Shown: piece by piece, positions 13,042-22,318 of the stretch
Position numbering within the stretch: the stretch's first letter is position 1
How the letters are laid out: every line of letters starts with the position of its first letter
Assembly (NCBI GenBank): GCA_040391885.1
Contig: JBEBXB010000001.1
Span: 1-26,337, forward strand
Reading direction: 5' to 3'
Source of the DNA: Conexibacter woesei
GTDB lineage: Bacteria; Actinomycetota; Thermoleophilia; Solirubrobacterales; 70-9
Length of the DNA: 26,337 nt
Translations under genes and position numbers: made by a program
Notes under the pieces: model-generated
Seen by the model: the letters and a program-made list of their open reading frames with translations, nothing else
What the model was told of the DNA's origin: nothing
The model's database searches: none

Positions 13042-14655
13042 TCAGGAAAGGAATTCGGGTATATCGCCGCCGCTGACCGCGGGCAGAGATCCACCCCGGT
13101 CACGGACCGATCCCCTTGCGCGGGAATCTCCGCGGTCGAGCGGTTCGCGTCTGGTGTCCCGGCCGGAACCGCCCCGGTCACGCTGATCCTCGCTGGACCG
13201 TCGCCGGGTCGGTGACTTGTTGTCGAACCGGGTCGCGACCACGGTGATCCACACCTGGTCGTCGAGGTCTTCGTCGATGTTCGCGCCGAAGATGATGTTG
13301 GCATCGGGATGAGCGGCTTCGCCGACTGCGCGGGCCGCTTCCGAGACCTCGATCAACGAGAGGTCGGATCCACCGGTGACGGAGAGCAGGATCGACCGGG
13401 CGCCGTCCATCGGGGTCTCCAGGAGAGGCGAGGAGATCGCCTTCTCCGCGGCGATCATGGCGCGGTCGGGACCGCTGCCCATGCCGATCCCGAGCAGGGC
13501 GCGGCCGGCGTCGGACATGATCGACCGGACGTCGGCGAAGTCGAGGTTGATCACCGACGGCAGGGTGACGAGGTCGGAGATGCCCTGGACGCCCTGGCGG
13601 AGGACGTCATCGGCGACCTGGAAGGCGTCGACCATCGGGGTCGACTGGTCGAGCACTTCGAGAAGACGGTCGTTCGGGATCACGATCAGGGTGTCGACTT
13701 CGCCGGCGAGGGCCTCGATGCCCTGCTCGGCCTGCTTGGCCCGGCGGCTGCCTTCGAAGGTGAACGGCTTGGTCACGATCCCGACGGTCAGGGCACCGAG
13801 GTCCCGGGCCAGACGCGCGATCACGGGGGCGGCACCGGTTCCGGTCCCGCCACCGGCACCGGCCGCGATGAAGACCATGTCGGAGCCCTTGAGCAGCCTC
13901 TTGATGCGGTCCTGCTCGTCGAATGCGGCGCGGAACCCGAGCGAAGGGTCGGCTCCGGCGCCGAGGCCCCGCGTCTCGTCCCCACCGATGTGGACGGTGA
14001 GATCGGAGACGCAGAGCTGAAGCGACTGAAGGTCGGTGTTGACGGCCATGAACTCGACGCCCGGGATCTGAGCTTCGATCATGCGGTTGATCGCGTTGAC
14101 GCCACCTCCGCCGACTCCGACCACGCGGATGATCGGGGTATGTGGCACACCGGCGCCCTGGTTGGCCGACGGTTCCTGGCGCCCGTAACGGGGCGCGTCG
14201 TCGGTCGGGGCCGGAGAGTCGGAGAAGATTCGACGGAGCCGGTCCTGGGGATCCGGCAGCCCGCTGGTGTCGGCCGCGGGGTCGGGGGCGGACAGCGGTC
14301 CGTGATCCGGTTCCTCGCGTCGCGGCTCGGGCTCGGCCGCCCGGCGGGTCTCCCCCACATCGGAGCCACCACGGGCCTCGACGGGATCCTGACGACCGAA
14401 ACGGCCGGCGGAAGCGGGGTCGGGACCTCGCTCTTCCTCACGGGCATCGTCGCCCGAAGCAGCTTCGGGGGCGGGATCTACATCGCGTGCGACGGCCTCG
14501 GCATCACGTTCCACCGGATCGCCCTGCGGTCCGGATCGGTCATCCTCGCGGCGGGGTTCGAATTCGGGCGGCTCCTGAGAAGGGTCGTCGGAGGTAGAGC
14601 GAAACAGGTCCGCCAGGGGACCTTCACGCATACTCGCTCGTTTACGACGAGCCAT
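13042..14655 (-). CDS. ftsZ: Cell division protein FtsZ with a ~170-aa N-terminal extension
   Basis: Motifs IRVVGVGGGGVNAINRM, NTDLQSL, tubulin signature GGGTGTG, PFTFEG..R, T7 loop INLDFADV and C-terminal DIPEFLS. The start (ATG 14655 or GTG 14658) has a perfect SD AAGGAGGT. Confidence 0.95.
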   Translation of the reverse strand: MARRKRASMREGPLADLFRSTSDDPSQEPPEFEPRREDDRSGPQGDPVERDAEAVARDVDPAPEAASGDDAREEERGPDPASAGRFGRQDPVEARGGSDVGETRRAAEPEPRREEPDHGPLSAPDPAADTSGLPDPQDRLRRIFSDSPAPTDDAPRYGRQEPSANQGAGVPHTPIIRVVGVGGGGVNAINRMIEAQIPGVEFMAVNTDLQSLQLCVSDLTVHIGGDETRGLGAGADPSLGFRAAFDEQDRIKRLLKGSDMVFIAAGAGGGTGTGAAPVIARLARDLGALTVGIVTKPFTFEGSRRAKQAEQGIEALAGEVDTLIVIPNDRLLEVLDQSTPMVDAFQVADDVLRQGVQGISDLVTLPSVINLDFADVRSIMSDAGRALLGIGMGSGPDRAMIAAEKAISSPLLETPMDGARSILLSVTGGSDLSLIEVSEAARAVGEAAHPDANIIFGANIDEDLDDQVWITVVATRFDNKSPTRRRSSEDQRDRGGSGRDTRREPLDRGDSRARGSVRDRGGSLPAVSGGDIPEFLS

Positions 14656-15778
14656 CACTCAAGACCTCCTTCGCCAGATTCCGGTAGTACGACGCCGCAC
14701 GACTGTCGGGATCGTACTTCAGGACACTAGCGCCCCGTACCGGCGCTTCGGCGAACTTTACGGCCTTGCGGATGCGGGACTTGAATACCAGGTCCCCGAA
14801 ATTCTCTTCCAGAATCGAAACGGCTTCCCGGGCATGGAGGGTCCGGCCGTCGAACATGGTCGGCAAGATGCCCTCGATCCGGACGTTCGGGTTGAGGTTC
14901 TCCTGGATCATCTTCAAAGTGTTCTGGAGCTGGACCAATCCACGCATAGAAAGGTACTCGCACTGGACCGGGACGATCACCTTGCTCGAAGCGGTGAGGG
15001 CGTTGATGGTCAGCAAGCCGAGGCTCGGCGGGGTGTCGATGCAGATGTAGTCGTAGTCGCCGTGGACCTCGCGAAGCGCCTTCTCCAAGGATCGTTCACG
15101 GCCGATCTTGGTGCTCATCGCGATCTCGGCCCCGGCCAGGTCGATCGAGGCGACGGCGATGTCGATCTCGCGGTGGGCGATCACTTCGGAGATCGGCAGA
15201 TCGTCCACCAGCACGTCGTACATGCTGTGTTCGACCTTGTCGGGGTCGATTCCCTGACTCATCGTGAGGTTGCCCTGCGGGTCGAGATCGATGCAGAGAA
15301 CCCGGTTGCCGAGCTCGGAAAGGGCGACCGCCAGGTTCAGGGTCGAGGTCGTCTTGGCGACGCCGCCCTTCTGGTTGGCGAAGCTGATCACCTCGGCCAT
15401 GTCGACCGGGGTCGGGTCCGGCTCCGGGGTCGGCAGAAGGAAGTCACGGCGGTCGGGGGCGAGCAGGTCGGCGGCCTTGAGGCGGATCTCCGACTCCTCG
15501 GCGGCAGCTTCCTCTTCCACCTGAGCCAGCTCCTCCTCGACCGGGGCGCCGGCGGGCGGCGCGACCGAAGCAGCCGCGGCGGCATCGCCGGCGGATTCGT
15601 TCGCGGGGGCATCGGCCGCCGGGGCCTGATTCGGCTCGGCAGCGGGTGTTGACATCGTCGAAGCAGGCTCCGGAGCGGCCGTCACCGGGACGGCGGCAGG
15701 CTCAGCCGTCGGAGTTTCCTCCGCCGATTCGGGAGCGTGCGTGTCACGTGCGTGGTTCTTGCGGCTCAGGATTCGCAT
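14642..15778 (-). CDS. Orphan ParA/Soj family ATPase with an Ala/Pro/Glu-rich N-terminal extension
   Basis: Deviant Walker A KGGVAKT, DLDPQGNLT, IDTPPSLG, VQCEY and TMFDGRT. The core domain starts at about residue 127 (15400). The start is uncertain (15778, 15655 or 15400). Confidence 0.92.
   Translation of the reverse strand: MRILSRKNHARDTHAPESAEETPTAEPAAVPVTAAPEPASTMSTPAAEPNQAPAADAPANESAGDAAAAASVAPPAGAPVEEELAQVEEEAAAEESEIRLKAADLLAPDRRDFLLPTPEPDPTPVDMAEVISFANQKGGVAKTTSTLNLAVALSELGNRVLCIDLDPQGNLTMSQGIDPDKVEHSMYDVLVDDLPISEVIAHREIDIAVASIDLAGAEIAMSTKIGRERSLEKALREVHGDYDYICIDTPPSLGLLTINALTASSKVIVPVQCEYLSMRGLVQLQNTLKMIQENLNPNVRIEGILPTMFDGRTLHAREAVSILEENFGDLVFKSRIRKAVKFAEAPVRGASVLKYDPDSRAASYYRNLAKEVLSDGSS
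14664..14671 (-). promoter_or_regulatory. Shine-Dalgarno AAGGAGGT for ftsZ, embedded in the parA 3' end
   Basis: Perfect SD 8 nt before ATG 14655 and 5 nt before GTG 14658. It supports translation of the full N-terminal extension. Confidence 0.85.
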
Positions 15779-15832
15779 TTGGGCCGTTATTCGCAGGTAC
15801 CTCGCCCATTCCTCCCCGGAGGCTGCATCCGG

Positions 15833-16765
15833 TTGAATGCCTGCATAACCGAGTTCCTCGACAAACGGCTGTTATTCGTGACCGGGAAGGGTGGCGTCGG
15901 CAAGACGACGGTCGCGATCGCGCTCGGGATCCGCGCTGCGCTCGAAGGCAAGAGGACGATCGTCTGCGAGGTCGCATCCTCCGAGAACACCTCGCGCCTT
16001 TTCGACCAGTCGGCGGTCGGGTTCCGCGAGGTCGAGCTGGCCAACAACCTGTGGGCGATCTCGATCGACCCAGAGGAGTCCATGCGCGAGTACGTGCTGC
16101 TCCAGTTGAAGGTCAAGGCGATGCGCGACCTGCTCTTCCGCAGCAAGATGTTCACCTACCTGGCGGCCGCCACCCCGGGCCTGAACGAGCTGGTGACGAT
16201 CGGCAAGATCTGGGAGCTGGCCCAGCTGGACCGCAAGGTGAAGCACGGTCGCAAGTACGACCTGGTGATCGTCGACGCACCTGCCACCGGCCACGGGATC
16301 AGCTTCCTGCAGACGCCCCGCACCTTCGCGAACATCGCCCGGGTCGGGCCGATCCACAGCCAGGGCCTCCAGCTGGAGGCGATGATCACGGATCACAGCC
16401 AGACCGGCGCGGTGATCGTTTCCCTGCCGGAGGAGATGCCGGTCAACGAGAGCGCCCGCCTCGAACAGGAGCTGAGCGAAGGCATCGGCGTCTCGATCGA
16501 CCGGGTGATCATGAACGCCCTGTATCCCGACCGGTTTTCGCGGACCGACCTCGATCGGCTCGCTTCCCTGCGCGGGTCGGACGACGGCGAGGTCCGGGCG
16601 GCGGCCCGGGCGGCGGGCTCCCAGGCGAAAAGGGTCGCCGCCCAGCGGGAGCAGCTCGCCCGGCTCGAGGAGATGGTCCACGCGCCCATCTCGACCCTGC
16701 CGTTCGTGTTCCGGCCCGAGCTCGACCTCAAGGCGGCTCGTCTGTTGGCCGAGGAGATTTCCTGA
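15833..16765 (+). CDS. ArsA/GET3-like ATPase, Rv3679-like subunit
   Basis: Motifs LLFVTGKGGVGKTT, PGLNEL..IGK, DAPATGH and LPEEMPVNE. The TTG start is chosen because of GGAGG at 15818-15822. Confidence 0.88.
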   Translation: MNACITEFLDKRLLFVTGKGGVGKTTVAIALGIRAALEGKRTIVCEVASSENTSRLFDQSAVGFREVELANNLWAISIDPEESMREYVLLQLKVKAMRDLLFRSKMFTYLAAATPGLNELVTIGKIWELAQLDRKVKHGRKYDLVIVDAPATGHGISFLQTPRTFANIARVGPIHSQGLQLEAMITDHSQTGAVIVSLPEEMPVNESARLEQELSEGIGVSIDRVIMNALYPDRFSRTDLDRLASLRGSDDGEVRAAARAAGSQAKRVAAQREQLARLEEMVHAPISTLPFVFRPELDLKAARLLAEEIS

Positions 16766-17952
16766 TGACCTCGATCGAAGATGTGATCGGCGATCGCCAG
16801 ATCGTGATCTGCGCCGGCTCCGGCGGGGTCGGCAAGACGACCACTTCGGCGGCGATCGCGCTCGGCATGGCCGCCCGGGGCTTGAAGGTGTGTGTCTTGA
16901 CGATCGACCCGGCGAAGCGGCTGGCCGACTCGCTCGGCCTCGAAGAGCTCGGCAACGAGGCGTCCCGGGTCGATCCCGCGCTGCTCCGTGAACATGGGGT
17001 CGAGACGAGTGACGGCGGCGAGCTCTGGGCGATGATGCTCGACGCCAAGGAGACCTTCGACGCGCTGATCGCCCGACATGCCGAGGATGCCGCCGCCCGG
17101 GACCGGGTGCTCGGCAACCGCATCTACCAGGAGATCTCGGGCGCCCTTGCCGGCTCCCAGGAGTACATGGCGATGGAGAAGCTCTTCGAGCTGCATTCCG
17201 ACGGTCGGTTCGACCTGCTGGTGCTCGACACCCCGCCGAGCCGCAACGCGCTGGACTTCCTCGACGCGCCGCGGCGGCTGACCCAGTTCATCGAGGGGCG
17301 CTCCCTCCAGATCTTCCTCCGGCCGACCGGGCTGGCGGCGCGGGTCGCGGGCCGGGGTGCCAGCGTGGTCCTGTCGGTGCTGAAGCGGATCCTCGGATTC
17401 GACCTGCTGGCGGATCTCTCCGAGTTCTTCACCGCCTTCAGCGGCATGATCGACGGCTTCCGTGACCGTGCCCAGCGCGTCAACACCCTGCTCAGCGACC
17501 AGCGGACCTGTTTCGTCGTCGTCTGCGGGCCCCAGGGTCAGCCGATCGACGAGGCCGTCTTCTTCCATTCGAAGCTGGTCGAGAACGAGATGAACTTCGC
17601 CGGGGTGGTCGTCAACCGGGTCCGGTACCGGTTCGGGACCCGGTCACCGCGGTTGCGGGACCTGACCGCCCGGCTCGAAGGCGAACTGGGTGATGAAGCG
17701 TCACCGGAACTGGCCGAGGCGGCTGCCCGCAACCTGGTCGAGTACGAGGCCCTGGCTCAGCGCGACGCCCGCAACATCGCCCGGCTCACCGAGAGCCTCG
17801 GAGGCGAACCGATGATCCGGGTCCCGTATCTCGACACCGATGTCCACGACATCGCCGGCCTGGCCGAGATCGATCGTTACCTGTTCGCCGACGAGGAGAC
17901 CAGGATCGATCTGGCTACCGGGTCCGGCGATGGCGGTAGTTCAGCTCGCTGA
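16765..17952 (+). CDS. ArsA/GET3-like ATPase, Rv3680-like subunit
   Basis: Motifs GSGGVGKTT, TIDPAKRLA.SLG, QEYMAMEKL and DTPPSRNALDFLDAP. The start overlaps the upstream stop (TGATG). Confidence 0.92.
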   Translation: MTSIEDVIGDRQIVICAGSGGVGKTTTSAAIALGMAARGLKVCVLTIDPAKRLADSLGLEELGNEASRVDPALLREHGVETSDGGELWAMMLDAKETFDALIARHAEDAAARDRVLGNRIYQEISGALAGSQEYMAMEKLFELHSDGRFDLLVLDTPPSRNALDFLDAPRRLTQFIEGRSLQIFLRPTGLAARVAGRGASVVLSVLKRILGFDLLADLSEFFTAFSGMIDGFRDRAQRVNTLLSDQRTCFVVVCGPQGQPIDEAVFFHSKLVENEMNFAGVVVNRVRYRFGTRSPRLRDLTARLEGELGDEASPELAEAAARNLVEYEALAQRDARNIARLTESLGGEPMIRVPYLDTDVHDIAGLAEIDRYLFADEETRIDLATGSGDGGSSAR

Positions 17953-19834
17953 CCGACCATTCGGTCGTGCCGGGATCCGGGAAGAAGCGGCGGTTGAGCG
18001 GCCCGTGATCGGGGTTGCGGCGGTCCTCTTCGAACCCGTCGTGAGGCTGGACCGGAAAGTCCATAGTCTCACCGGCCCGGCTCGCGTTAAGCCAGTCCTC
18101 GCGTAGCGTCGCACCGACCTCCGTGGTCGCCGTAACCTTGATCTCACCTTCGGCCGGCGTCGGCTCCAGCAGCCTGGTGCTGCCGGTGTCCTCGAAGGGC
18201 TGGTCGAAGCTCGCGCCGAAGTCGGCTGCGAAATCGGCGTTGACGGTGCTCCGTTCGGAGCCGGGCTCGATGCCGAGCGCGACCTCGATCTCCGGCATCG
18301 ACTCGAACCGGCGTTCGTTGAGATCGATCGGGGCGGCGGGAACGTCGGGAAGCGGTTCTGGGTCGAACTCAGGAACCGATCCGAACAGGGGGTCCACCCC
18401 TGCCTCCACTTTCGGATCGACACTTTCGGTCCCACCCACGACCCGGGGGCGGAACACGTGAATCTCTGCGCCGGCCGGCTCGTCCATGGCGATCTCGCCG
18501 GGGAACTCGGTTGCGACGAAATCATCTTCGGGTTCCGGCACCGCGTCCCATTCGGCCGTCGAGCCGATCTGGCTGGCGCTGCCTTCACCGGCGGCGAGAC
18601 CCGTGGTCAGGAGGGTCTCCTCCGCGGTCACGTTCAGGTCCTGGCCGAAGTGGCCGAGCACGGCCTCCCGCATGATGTGCCGGGTCGAATCCTCGATCCA
18701 GGCGGCGATGTAGGTGGCTGACTCGCCGCCGACCGACATCACGTCTTCGCCGTTGATCAGGGTCTGCTCGAGCTTCATAGCCAGCGCGAACCGTTCGCGG
18801 GCACGGAGATCCTCGGCGTCACCGGTGACCAGAGCCGCTGCCCGCGCGTCGAGCGGGGCGTCGATGACGCCTTCGCCACCGAGAGCGGAACGGATCGCCA
18901 GCAGGTGATCGCTCAGCCCGTCGATCGGCAGGGCGCGTTCGCATCCGTACTGGAAGCGACGCTGCGCGTAGGCGAGATGGTCGAGATCGGCGGGGCTCTC
19001 GTTGAGGCGCCGGACGAGGCCGTTCAGGCCTTCGACCTCGGACTCGATAAGGAAGTAGCTGCCGGGACGCGGCGGGGCGGCACCGGTCTCGATGCGGCGC
19101 CAGGACTCCTCCCCGACCGGGGCGAAGGCGAAAGGCCCGACCCCGACCGAGCCGTCCTTGAAGAGACGGAGCGCCTGGATCAGAGCGTGGAGACGGGCTA
19201 CCGCCCTGCGCGGTCCATCCTCGGAATCGGTCAGGGGCACCATGGCCAGGTACGCCTGCTGCCAGGCGGCCCGCTCGGTTCCCTCGCTGGTGGTCGCCTC
19301 CAGGGGCGCGTTGACGGAATCGGCCTGGACGATCTTGATGTCGCCGACGAGCTCGATCTCCGTCGGGGTCATCTCGAACCCGATCAGCGGGGCCAGCAGC
19401 ACCTCCGCCTCGTGGATGTCGCGGGCTTCGACCTCGAGCGCGGCCAGCGCCTGCTCGACCCGAGCGATGTCCAGTGAGAACTCGGTGGTGCCCTCCCAGA
19501 GGGAGGTGATGAACACGGAGAGCATCTCCTCGGCCCGGCGGTTCGGCTCGGAAGGAACCGGGATGCCGCGCGACTCGAGGTAGGGAGCGGCGACCTCGGT
19601 CGAGGCGACCGCGCCCCGCGCGGGCCCGTAGGAAGGCAGCGACTTGAGCTCGTCGATGTGGGCGCTGATGTAGCGCGAAGTCAGGGGCACGTACCGGTAG
19701 AAGTGGGAGCTCTCCCCATCGTTCTCCGCAACGTCGAAGGGGATCTGGTCGCCGGTGGCCACCAGGGAGGAGAACCGCGTCGACGCCTCGGCTGCAAGCC
19801 GCTTCAAAGCCTCGTCAAGTACCGGATCGTGCAT
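17915..19834 (-). CDS. Hypothetical protein (639 aa) with an ApeA-like HEPN-type region and an acidic low-complexity tail
   Basis: Long ORF with coding-like codon pattern from ATG 19834 (MHDPVLDEAL), with AGGA upstream. Its 3' end overlaps the convergent ATPase by 38 nt. The domain call is by-eye inference. Confidence 0.75.
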   Translation of the reverse strand: MHDPVLDEALKRLAAEASTRFSSLVATGDQIPFDVAENDGESSHFYRYVPLTSRYISAHIDELKSLPSYGPARGAVASTEVAAPYLESRGIPVPSEPNRRAEEMLSVFITSLWEGTTEFSLDIARVEQALAALEVEARDIHEAEVLLAPLIGFEMTPTEIELVGDIKIVQADSVNAPLEATTSEGTERAAWQQAYLAMVPLTDSEDGPRRAVARLHALIQALRLFKDGSVGVGPFAFAPVGEESWRRIETGAAPPRPGSYFLIESEVEGLNGLVRRLNESPADLDHLAYAQRRFQYGCERALPIDGLSDHLLAIRSALGGEGVIDAPLDARAAALVTGDAEDLRARERFALAMKLEQTLINGEDVMSVGGESATYIAAWIEDSTRHIMREAVLGHFGQDLNVTAEETLLTTGLAAGEGSASQIGSTAEWDAVPEPEDDFVATEFPGEIAMDEPAGAEIHVFRPRVVGGTESVDPKVEAGVDPLFGSVPEFDPEPLPDVPAAPIDLNERRFESMPEIEVALGIEPGSERSTVNADFAADFGASFDQPFEDTGSTRLLEPTPAEGEIKVTATTEVGATLREDWLNASRAGETMDFPVQPHDGFEEDRRNPDHGPLNRRFFPDPGTTEWSVSELNYRHRRTR

Positions 19835-20002
19835 GTCGTCCTGGTTCCCGCCCCCGGCCCCCCATCCTGCGGCTGCACGGTGGATTGCAGTCGGCCCGAA
19901 GGCGAGCACGCACCCTGAACCGGCCGGGTGCAACTCTCGTGGTCCGCCGTTGTTATGGGTCTGTCGCTGCCCGCCGGCAGCGCTTACCGGGGGAGACAAC
20001 GA

Positions 20003-22318
20003 ATGTCGAGGGAGTTTCCGCTTTACCGCATCGCTGGAATGGTCACGATGGCAGTCCTGGCGCTGTGCGCCGCTTTCATGCCCGACCCGGGCCAGGCCCG
20101 GTCGCCCGGGCAACTCGACCCGTCCTGGGGATCCGACGGGCTCACGGTCCTTGCGTTCGGGGACAAGACCGCCGGTTCCACCGCAGCCGGGCTTGTCAAG
20201 GATCCGGAGGGTCGCATCATGCAGCTCGGCAGCTCATCTTCCGGCAAGGAAGGGTTGATCTCCCGCAATTTGGCGGACGGCAGCCCGGATTCGACATTCG
20301 GCAACGAGGGGACGGCGGCCGTTCCCGGCCTGCTTCCCCGTTCGATCGATTTTCAGCCGGACGGTCGGCCGGTGATCGCCGGGCTGGCTGCCGGCGAACC
20401 GGCCCTCGCTCGTCTGAACGGCGACGGTTCGCTGGATGCCTCTTTCGGCACCGGCGGCATCAGCCGTATCGTCTGGGATCCACCTGCCAAGCTCTTCTCC
20501 GGTTTCGCCCGGTCCGATGCGCGGGTGATCGACCTGCAGAGCGTCGCCGTTCTGACCTCTGGTGACATCGTCGCCGCCGGCCCGGTAGGTGGCTGCTACC
20601 GGGACGACCCCGACGGTTACCCTCAGACAGGCTGCGATCAGTTCGTCGCCATTGGGGCCGATTCCGGCGGTGCCCCCCTTGCGGATTTCGGAGCAACCGG
20701 CGGAATCCGGTACTTCAGCTTCTACGGTGACGTAATCGGCAACATGGCGTTCGCCGCCGACGTGGCCCCGGACGGGCTGATCCGGCTGGGTCTTTACTCG
20801 ATTGCCGATTCAACCAACGGGGGACTCGACGCTTTCGTCAACGTCGCCACGATGCCCGCAAGGTCTTCGGCCGAGGCCGAATGGATCGCCGATCACTACC
20901 CGGACGCGCCACCGATAGCCCGGGCGATGGTCGGGGTTCTGTCCGGGGGCCCCGGAATGGGGGGACCGGACTTTGGCGGGCCCGGCCCCGGCGGCCTCAC
21001 GCTCGACGGCGACCTCACCTATGCCGTCACCGGCGAGGCCCTGGTGAGATTCGGGGCAGACGGGGCGCCCGACCCTGCCTTCGGCAGCCGCGGGGTGGTG
21101 GCGCTCACCGCGGCCACCTACCACGGCTCGATCGGCAACCGGCGGATGATCGGACAGTCGGTGGCTATCGACGATCGAGACCGAGTGGTGGTCTCGGGCC
21201 TGTTCAAGCCGTCCCCCGGATCAAGTGCCTTCGCGGCACGCTTCAACGCGTCCGGTGAACCCGACCCGACCTTCAGCAACGACGGCTTCGCCGCCGCGTG
21301 GCAGGGCAGCGGTGGATCGCTGGTCAACCGCCCGTCACTGGTGGTCAGCGGTGACCGGTACCTGCTCGGCGGAACCCACACCAACAAGGGGTCCTCGCGT
21401 GCCCTGCTGATGGCGATCGACGGGAGCGCCGGCCGTTCCTACAGATGCGGTGGACGGGCTGCGACCTGGATCGGCACCGACGGCGACGATGAGGTCAGGC
21501 TGACCAACGGCGTCGTCGTCACCCTGGGCGGCAAAGACCGGGTGACTTTCCTCAAACGTGAAACCCAGCAGTCGGTGACCTGCGCCGGACCGGGCAACGA
21601 TCGAGTCGAAACCATCGGCGGAATCGTCTACGGCGGTCCTGGCAACGACGATCTGTCCGGGATCACGAGCGAGAAAGGCCGCTTCCTGGGAGATCGCCTC
21701 TACGGTGGCCCCGGAAACGATGTCATCAAGGGCAAGTCCGGTAGCGACGTGATCTCCGGTGGCCCTGGCAACGATCGTCTCTACGGAGGATCGGGAAGGG
21801 ATCAGATCCGGGGAGGGCCCGGCCGGGATCTTCTGAAAGGCGGAGCCGGCACCGACCGGTTGATCGGTGGGCCGGGCCGCGACCGGCTGGACGGTGGACC
21901 GGTCGGACCGCCCCTGGACCGGTACGTCACCCGGGCGGGCGCGAAGACTTCCGTTTCGATCATCGCCTCTGGCCGCAAGGTGCATAACGTGCTGGTCGGG
22001 TCCACCATCGCCTGCCAACCGTTCAACCCCGACTGCCAGCAAGGCCGCTTCGGCTACTTCCAATTCAACGACCACCGGTTCAAAGGTCGGAAACAGATGC
22101 TGAAGGGACACGAATGGGATGCCGACGAGTACGACGCCGACACATTCGACCAGAGGATCGAAGCCCGCAAGCGGGGAAGGGTCGTGACCGGCAAGGTCCG
22201 CTTTACGATCCCCAGCCCTCATTGGCGTGCCCACTGGACCGGCCAGAGCCTGCGCAACCCGTGGGTTGGCTTCCGCGCGTTCCGCCAGCCGAAGGACCGG
22301 CAGATCGTCAAGCAGTGA
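20003..22318 (+). CDS. Secreted delta-60 (DUF5122) beta-propeller + RTX-like Ca-binding repeat protein 1
   Basis: SD GGGGAG and a signal peptide ending ...PGQA. Repeats LDPSWGSDG, PDSTFGNEG, LDASFGTGG, PDPAFGSRG and PDPTFSNDG. GGxGxD nonapeptides at about 21630-21900. Confidence 0.88.
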   Translation: MSREFPLYRIAGMVTMAVLALCAAFMPDPGQARSPGQLDPSWGSDGLTVLAFGDKTAGSTAAGLVKDPEGRIMQLGSSSSGKEGLISRNLADGSPDSTFGNEGTAAVPGLLPRSIDFQPDGRPVIAGLAAGEPALARLNGDGSLDASFGTGGISRIVWDPPAKLFSGFARSDARVIDLQSVAVLTSGDIVAAGPVGGCYRDDPDGYPQTGCDQFVAIGADSGGAPLADFGATGGIRYFSFYGDVIGNMAFAADVAPDGLIRLGLYSIADSTNGGLDAFVNVATMPARSSAEAEWIADHYPDAPPIARAMVGVLSGGPGMGGPDFGGPGPGGLTLDGDLTYAVTGEALVRFGADGAPDPAFGSRGVVALTAATYHGSIGNRRMIGQSVAIDDRDRVVVSGLFKPSPGSSAFAARFNASGEPDPTFSNDGFAAAWQGSGGSLVNRPSLVVSGDRYLLGGTHTNKGSSRALLMAIDGSAGRSYRCGGRAATWIGTDGDDEVRLTNGVVVTLGGKDRVTFLKRETQQSVTCAGPGNDRVETIGGIVYGGPGNDDLSGITSEKGRFLGDRLYGGPGNDVIKGKSGSDVISGGPGNDRLYGGSGRDQIRGGPGRDLLKGGAGTDRLIGGPGRDRLDGGPVGPPLDRYVTRAGAKTSVSIIASGRKVHNVLVGSTIACQPFNPDCQQGRFGYFQFNDHRFKGRKQMLKGHEWDADEYDADTFDQRIEARKRGRVVTGKVRFTIPSPHWRAHWTGQSLRNPWVGFRAFRQPKDRQIVKQ

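Follow-up and report, generated by a model that had tools for sequence, protein, structure and literature searches.

The DNA examined here is a 26,337 nt stretch (the window; positions 1 to 26,337 of contig JBEBXB010000001.1, assembly GCA_040391885.1) of Conexibacter woesei, a soil member of the order Solirubrobacterales in the class Thermoleophilia, phylum Actinomycetota. The source is a metagenome-assembled genome, 72% complete and divided into 282 contigs. On the reverse strand, between nt 13042 and 15778, the window carries a gene for a ParA-like ATPase (parA) directly followed by a gene for a second FtsZ paralogue (ftsZ2). The FtsZ2 protein begins with a short conserved peptide, called here the tag, which is joined to the GTPase domain by a long linker. 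The features of the pair are listed below.

14642..15778, (−) strand: parA-like gene, 378 aa; Pfam AAA_31 (6e-60) and CbiA
15404..15778, (−) strand: Ala/Pro/Glu-rich N-terminal extension of ParA, ~125 aa (50 loci compared)
14664..14671, (−) strand: Shine-Dalgarno sequence AAGGAGGT for ftsZ2, within the last parA codons (K-E-V)
14642..14655, (−) strand: 14 nt overlap of the parA stop and the ftsZ2 start (read from the sequence)
13042..14655, (−) strand: ftsZ2, second FtsZ paralogue, 537 aa from ATG; TIGR00065, 408 bits (cut-off 295)
14593..14655, (−) strand: N-terminal tag MARRKRASMREGPLADLFRST of FtsZ2 (translation; family alignments)
14140..14592, (−) strand: acidic, Pro-rich, disordered linker, ~150 aa (AlphaFold2 model, AF2; alignment)
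14224..14250, (−) strand: linker helix QDRLRRIFS, residues 136–144 (AF2; conserved in families f1–f3)
13651..14130, (−) strand: FtsZ GTPase domain (PF00091, Tubulin, 9e-44)
13225..13506, (−) strand: FtsZ C-terminal domain (PF12327, FtsZ_C, 1e-30)
13045..13071, (−) strand: C-terminal peptide GGDIPEFLS of FtsZ2 (read from the sequence)

Much of what the initial annotation had read at this locus is upheld. The parA stop codon (TAA, nt 14642–14644) lies within the ftsZ2 reading frame region and the ftsZ2 ATG is at nt 14655 (an alternative GTG is at 14658), giving the 14 nt overlap that had been described. The Shine-Dalgarno sequence does sit inside parA, 8 nt from the ftsZ2 ATG, and the peptide assigned to nt 14593–14655 is encoded there. 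The FtsZ N-terminus had been called unusually long; the extension measures ~175 residues, and the Tubulin domain begins only at residue 177. ParA had been regarded as an orphan, and a domain scan of the window found no ParB domain. The sole ParB_N match of the genome is on another contig (C45), where it adjoins a Soj-type parA.

The window gene encodes a complete FtsZ. Both the GGGTGTG(AAP) motif and the T7 loop (NLDFADV) are intact, and they are invariant across an 88-sequence alignment. The canonical ftsZ of the same genome (ftsZ1) was found on contig C14, directly after a ftsQ-like gene, and its product starts with a short N-terminus and ends in a C-terminal peptide, DIEVPPFLRD. This makes the window gene a paralogue and not the sole FtsZ of the cell, and the earlier idea that ParA positions the cell's only FtsZ has to be given up. 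A maximum-likelihood tree separates the FtsZ2 proteins, by a branch with support 99/95, from FtsZ1, which groups with the FtsZ of outgroup actinobacteria; with the position of the C14 copy after ftsQ, this places the window protein outside the orthologues of the division FtsZ of the dcw cluster. Since all FtsZ2 proteins form a single group, they have one origin, at or before the ancestor of the class. The FtsZ2 cores compared are 58–75% identical to that of the window protein, and the homologues of the window protein carry the source names Solirubrobacterales or Thermoleophilia.

A second ftsZ is a regular feature of Thermoleophilia. Among 130 other genomes of the class that are at least 90% complete, 126 have two FtsZ_C matches, three have one and a single genome has three; the window's own genome has two. 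Four single-ftsZ genomes were found also to lack this parA. They are uninformative, because parA and ftsZ2 are adjacent and the assemblies are incomplete (91–95%), and one gap would suffice to remove both genes. Elsewhere in the phylum, 100 of the 103 genomes sampled have a single ftsZ. The remaining three (G443:C63, G484:C15 and G497:C18, family f39) carry two copies in tandem, about 1.4 kb apart, apparently duplicated independently. The unpublished genomes G401, G445 and G483 enter into tallies only, and no locus or sequence was taken from them.

The tag is the most distinctive part of FtsZ2. The 120 homologues listed (59–85% identity over the aligned part) start either with M[ASGT]RRKRASMREGPL[AS]DLFRST or at an internal Met, a matter of gene calling, and the ~150 residues after the tag vary among them. 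Across more distant families the tag has diverged and is still recognisable in each family fetched, as the following examples show.

f1: MARRKRASMREGPLADLFRST
f2: MATGKRASMREGPLADLFRKT
f8: MARKRASMREGPLAELFRAT
f10: MGTRASMREGALASLFQST
f7: MADRPSMKDGLSELFRRT
f9: MEKRSSIKNSGLRYLFKAT

The class-wide core can be written as [KR]-x-S-[MIL]-[KR]-[EDN]-[GS]-(x)-L-x-x-L-F-[RKQ]-x-[TG]. S8, L14, L17 and F18 were invariant in an alignment of 21 sequences, and S8, G12, L14, L17, F18 and T21 are near-invariant in the tag alignment; genome G012 has an exception at S8, which is changed to N. This is the pattern that had been predicted in the initial annotation, a conserved segment of about 21 residues followed by a variable linker, and it is borne out by alignments across families.

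In tag codons 8–21, the encoded amino acid is constant in 39 distinct DNA sequences, and each position uses two to six synonymous codons (Met excepted). Constant residues with free synonymous change show that selection acts on the peptide and not on the RNA, and also that the extension is translated and its start is not mis-called. The same codons speak against the possibility, raised with the original claim, that FtsZ actually begins near residue 170. Conservation of the tag for an RNA structure, or for the gene overlap, was considered and rejected, as third positions vary freely and only codons 1–5 overlap parA. The tag is a linear motif conserved at the protein level, carried on a tether of variable length.

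In an AF2 model built with 88 sequences, the FtsZ2 core was predicted with high confidence (predicted local distance difference test, pLDDT, >90), and most of the linker scored below 50. The length of the linker ranges from ~15 aa in family f7 to ~200 aa in f2. It is interrupted by conserved islands: GRFGRQDP and PRYGRQEP, which are two copies of a family-level motif [FY]-G-R-x-[DE]-P, and the helix QDRLRRIFS, which has the best AF2 confidence in the linker (means of 64 and 76 in ten-residue blocks, residues 121–140) and is kept as [EQ]-[ED]-R-L-x-R-[IAV]-F in families f1–f3. Additional docking may take place at these islands, the helix included. Within the linker coding region, nt 14453–14469 form a perfect hairpin (CCCGAAGC-A-GCTTCGGG) that occurs once in the genome; a palindromic in-frame repeat common to the tails of parA and ftsZ is absent.

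By its motif class, the C-terminal peptide GGDIPEFLS belongs with the peptides that bind SepF and other membrane anchors. A D-[IV]-P-x-F-[LVI] peptide was found in seven of eight families (f1, f2, f3, f7, f8, f9 and most of f10). Family f6 (L054–L057) has kept the N-terminal tag, and its C-terminal D-[IV]-P-x-F peptide is missing. Five genomes of the class were examined for other division proteins: SepF was present in all five, MinC was found in none of them, and none had an FtsA above the cut-off.

If the two genes of the window form a functional unit, they might be expected to stay together in related genomes. Twenty loci from nine families were fetched, and in every case ftsZ2 comes immediately after a parA on its own strand, as it does in three further metagenomic homologues. 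A check of whether parA is always found there had been proposed with the original claim; the adjacency is class-wide, and the parA stop and the ftsZ2 start overlap or abut. Measured from the end of the parA stop codon, ftsZ2 begins at −17, −14, −4 or +1 in most loci, at −29 in f8 and at −71 in f10, and 18 of these 20 loci have a GAGG-type site 10–16 nt before the ftsZ2 start. The upstream ParAs show 63–80% core identity. The surrounding genes differ by family: the pair is followed by GGT in f1, f2, f3 and f6 and by scpA in f7, and BagA precedes it in f1–f3 only. In none of the loci examined were parA and ftsZ2 separated.

A 26-column profile of the tag gave one match, at the start of a frame of 430–600 aa, in 260 of 401 genomes of the class. 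Two families gave weak matches only (2/79 and 2/61 genomes), and both are among the nine from which loci were fetched. In the phylum beyond the class, ~369 genomes were searched with this profile and gave no match. A second, class-wide profile of 34 columns was compared with 1.84 billion representative proteins and returned 1,082 hits with E values of 0.001 or less. The best 150 of these consist almost entirely of N-terminal fragments of FtsZ2 from contig ends, apart from three unrelated or chimeric sequences. The initial annotation had small proteins with a similar motif encoded after orphan actinobacterial ParAs; none appeared in the ~369 phylum genomes or among the best 150 of the 1,082 hits, and that part of the proposal is not supported. 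The second-best genome hits of the tag profile are to an internal EGPLADLFR and not to ParB. This exact 9-mer, identical to the tag core, lies inside an unidentified protein of ~640 aa in one genus, g7 (L076, L077 and L080), and is probably there by chance.

ParA itself has the hallmarks of the ParA/MinD family of deviant Walker A ATPases: the Walker A motif with its signature lysine and the Walker A′ and Walker B aspartates are intact, as read from (NQ)KGGVAKTT, (I)DLDPQGN and ICIDTPPS. It matches the MipZ profile (PF09140) only partially, over positions 2–137 of 262 (E 5e-11), and far more weakly than it matches generic ParA models. Among solved structures, the nearest are mycobacterial (4PFS and 5IHP; both entries are titled "cobyrinic acid a,c-diamide synthase"). 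When 38 ParA cores were placed in a tree, the Soj proteins of the class and of the outgroup were split from the rest with support 100/99. The window protein is on the non-Soj side and is not the chromosomal Soj of ParABS, which in this genome is represented by the Soj next to parB on C45. The non-Soj side comprises ParAs linked to FtsZ2, ParAs linked to scpA and a third orphan type. The 20 FtsZ2-linked ParAs are monophyletic (100/99) and are placed, with weak support (84/67), as sister to the third orphan type; an alternative clade of FtsZ2-linked and scpA-linked ParAs was not rejected (approximately unbiased test, p 0.20). The window ParA belongs to a non-Soj orphan ParA clade of Actinomycetota.

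The third orphan type (L119, L121 and L123, from other Actinomycetota) has KTTTVASLG after the Walker A motif. Its Walker A reads GVAKTT in L119 and L121 and GVGKTT in L123, and the Gly-to-Ala change of the FtsZ2-linked ParAs thus recurs in two of the three. These three loci show no evident conserved partner downstream of parA, and the tag was not found there either.

In each of five outgroup genomes, the best match to the window ParA is encoded by a parA upstream of scpA, and such a parA was found within 1.5 kb in 10 of 30 outgroup scpA loci. This position upstream of scpA is probably also that of PldP/Rv1708/ParA2 (SCO1772). In other Actinomycetota, the scpA start lies at −4, −4, +5 and −17/−14 relative to the parA stop (L083, L084, L088 and L089), an arrangement that hints at translational coupling of the orphan ParA with the kleisin ScpA. 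In family f7, the order parA-ftsZ2-scpA(-scpB) is found in four of four loci; in family f1, scpA follows trpS and has no parA, and the scpA of the window genome is on contig C275. The most economical history has an ftsZ copy inserted at the parA-scpAB locus in the ancestor of the class, with parA and ftsZ2 later leaving scpAB together in most families. The combination of parA and ftsZ2 is a two-gene module that has been fixed in Thermoleophilia since the class ancestor.

The N-terminal extension of ParA was compared in 50 loci and is absent in families f7 and f9. Where present, it begins with MRILSRK in the window and with MG[LF][FL][NS]R[KG] in relatives (L003–L035, L058 and L061), and a second motif, R[IL]xAxxA[LI]xPxRR, is found ~25 residues before Walker A. 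The extreme N-terminal motif recalls the membrane-binding N-terminus of MinE (..FFLSRKK).

An orphan ParA with a role in division has been described in Corynebacterium. PldP (Cg1610), a ParA-like protein homologous to Rv1708, is located at nascent septa and on the nucleoid, its loss leads to minicells and asymmetric septa, neither ParB nor lipids stimulate its ATPase, and no partner of it is known (PMC3989709; bioRxiv 10.1101/2025.07.02.662783; PMC4255298). A 2025 preprint ties PldP to TatA dynamics (bioRxiv 10.1101/2025.07.02.662783). Like PldP/Rv1708/ParA2 (SCO1772), the window ParA is non-Soj and has no ParB partner; unlike them, it belongs to a class in which a second ftsZ stands between parA and scpA, or in the place of scpA, whereas no link to FtsZ has been reported for PldP.

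Other known systems show partial likenesses. As in ParABS, the N-terminus bears a short peptide, located in a flexible region, in which L-x-x-L-Φ comes after basic residues, and the partner gene immediately follows parA. The differences are that the window ParA is outside the Soj clade, that the cargo would be a cytoskeletal GTPase and not a CTPase DNA clamp, that the genome has a separate Soj-ParB pair, and that the likeness of the tag to ParB is not above chance. With MipZ, PomXYZ and MinCDE the module shares an ATPase of the ParA/MinD family that is genetically tied to FtsZ function, and short N-terminal peptides are the means by which PomX and MinE stimulate their ATPases. However, MipZ is dependent on ParB and acts on a sole FtsZ through the globular part, PomZ requires the adaptors PomX and PomY, MinD is membrane-bound and works through MinC, and none of these systems has a dedicated, tag-bearing FtsZ paralogue. 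The closest FtsZ parallel is in Atribacter laminatus, which has a conventional FtsZ and an N-terminally extended second FtsZ outside a dcw/ftsA context, but its authors took the extension for an amphipathic membrane helix and reported no linkage to ParA (PMC7736352). Among 6,751 type strains, Katayama et al. (2020) noted 9 that combine a typical FtsZ with an N-terminally extended one, and did not analyse them further (PMC7736352), and Actinobacteria do not appear in the list of phyla with two FtsZ given by Pende et al. (2021; PMC8178401). The initial annotation knew of no described system of this design, and the literature search agrees: it turned up no paper connecting Thermoleophilia, FtsZ and ParA, and none describing a parA-ftsZ2 module.

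The gene arrangement and the conservation of the tag suggest that ParA may act directly on FtsZ2, and we infer that the two proteins work together. Placed on a flexible tether and under strong selection, the tag is probably a protein-docking motif. As a best guess, it would dock on the ATP-bound ParA dimer and modulate its ATPase, in the manner of the N-terminal peptides of ParB, PomX and MinE. FtsZ2 would polymerise and join the SepF-anchored FtsZ1 ring, and the way ParA is distributed over the nucleoid would influence the place at which FtsZ2, and thereby the Z-ring, assembles, which would matter in a lineage without MinC and FtsA. In favour of this explanation are the unbroken pairing, the conservation of the tag, the non-Soj type of ParA, the division phenotype and localisation of PldP, the intact motifs of ParA and FtsZ2, and a genomic context with SepF and without MinC and FtsA. 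As an overall account of the parA-ftsZ2 module it is the favoured one and is tentative, falling somewhat short of an even chance. A contact between ParA and the tag is, taken by itself, possible but rather doubtful, and the full model of ring positioning is improbable as it stands.

Several findings weigh against a docking of the tag on ParA. The parA-scpA overlap in other Actinomycetota resembles the parA-ftsZ2 geometry, and the overlap is therefore weak evidence of a partnership, as it may be inherited; of the original argument from the overlap, the 14 nt are confirmed and the weight is reduced. As no genome parts the tag from ParA, their co-occurrence is explained by common descent. In the AF2 model the tag contains a five-residue helix (residues 15–19) and has a pLDDT of only ~64. 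A likeness of the tag to the ParA-activating N-terminus of ParB had been part of the initial annotation and was examined with a profile of nine ParB N-termini from the class and the outgroup, scanned against all six translated frames of the genome (3.7 million residues). ParB scored 29.6 bits and the next match ≤8.7, and the FtsZ2 N-terminus was without a match among 12,466 background hits. Derivation of the tag from a ParB N-terminus (motif GxG[RK]GLxxL[ILF]), or mimicry of it, was rejected on these grounds as unsupported, the likeness being no greater than chance.

Capture of the tag from the 5′ end of scpA was a second origin considered. The idea came from a similarity between REGPLADLF and the ScpA sequence FxGPFDLLL, together with the position of ftsZ2 in the slot before scpA. 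It is no more than speculative, as a ScpA-N profile of 35 sequences gave no match to the tag, whose likeness to ScpA N-termini is at chance level, and the f7 and f9 tags lack EGP.

The strongest of the competing explanations is that the tag docks on a different partner, such as the FtsZ1 or FtsZ2 core, SepF, SMC-ScpAB, a kinase acting on [KR]-x-S, or DNA, and that ParA acts through the globular domain of FtsZ2, as MipZ does, or not at all. The tag is unlike ParB N-termini, its [KR]-x-S is near-invariant (S8 being altered only in G012), the f7 module adjoins scpAB, and the linker islands ([FY]GRx[DE]P twice, and QDRLRRIF) imply several binding partners; it is also established that MipZ binds FtsZ without a tag. 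Set against this, ParA is the only protein whose gene always accompanies the tag-bearing gene, AF2 gave no confident docking of the tag on the FtsZ core, and the ScpA-N profile leaves the tag unmatched. Another partner is an unlikely explanation.

A purely historical linkage would mean that ftsZ2 landed in a translationally coupled slot behind parA and was kept there for co-expression only, with FtsZ2 acting, independently of ParA, as a modulating paralogue much like the extra FtsZs of Hyphomicrobiales. The matching overlap geometry of parA-scpA in the outgroup and the single origin of FtsZ2, with no independent gains, fit such a history, and there are known cases of FtsZ paralogues tuning division (bioRxiv 10.1101/2025.09.29.679267). 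However, the pair has outlived rearrangements away from scpAB, GGT and BagAB in nine families, the overlap and the SD-like (Shine-Dalgarno-like) site have been maintained, and the extreme conservation of the tag is left unexplained. It is a quite unlikely account of the module.

A membrane-targeting amphipathic helix, by which FtsZ2 would anchor itself with ParA as a mere co-expressed neighbour, is very unlikely: the segment PLADLFRST (hydrophobic moment 0.58, mean hydrophobicity 0.04) is similar to the membrane helix of MinD, its moment being comparable to those of known membrane-targeting helices, L14, L17 and F18 share one helix face, a basic run precedes the helix in the f1 tag, and the second FtsZ of Atribacter offers a precedent (PMC7736352), but the predicted helix has 5 residues, where about 9 or more and a net positive charge would be expected, and includes acidic ones, net charge is only 0 to +1 in f10 and f7 (0 to +4 across families, with moments of 0.53–0.82), lipid-binding helices tolerate hydrophobic swaps and here S8, G12, L14, L17, F18 and T21 hardly vary, FtsZ2 retains a C-terminal anchor-binding peptide and SepF is present, and no amphipathic helix was found in the 9 cultured strains with a typical and an N-terminally extended FtsZ (PMC7736352).

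Upstream of parA and divergent from it, the window carries a pair of genes for Get3/ArsA-like ATPases of the BagA/BagB type, at nt 15737–16765 (+) and 16762–17952 (+); the second scores 345 bits, which is under the equivalog cut-off. This neighbourhood beside parA is retained only in families f1–f3. An open reading frame of 732 aa (nt 17915–20113, (−) strand) has no match in Pfam or NCBIfam.

In Actinomycetota, division sites are chosen without Min or Noc, and the docking explanation makes testable how this is done; ParAs of the PldP type are known to affect where septa form. In its widest form, FtsZ itself would be the sought partner of the PldP-type orphan ParAs; Thermoleophilia would have hard-wired this partnership through a tagged FtsZ paralogue, and a gradient of ParA on the nucleoid would set where the Z-ring nucleates, without Min or FtsA. 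This generalisation is at present a long way from probable. The class-wide, unbroken pair of ParA and a tagged FtsZ nevertheless offers a concrete candidate for an interaction, reduced to two proteins and one peptide of 21 residues, and if the docking explanation is true, the pair would be a two-protein system of division-site selection with FtsZ as the cargo of ParA. Even if ParA does not bind the tag, Thermoleophilia keep two complete FtsZs, one of which carries a strictly conserved, tethered motif, and this represents undescribed division biology.

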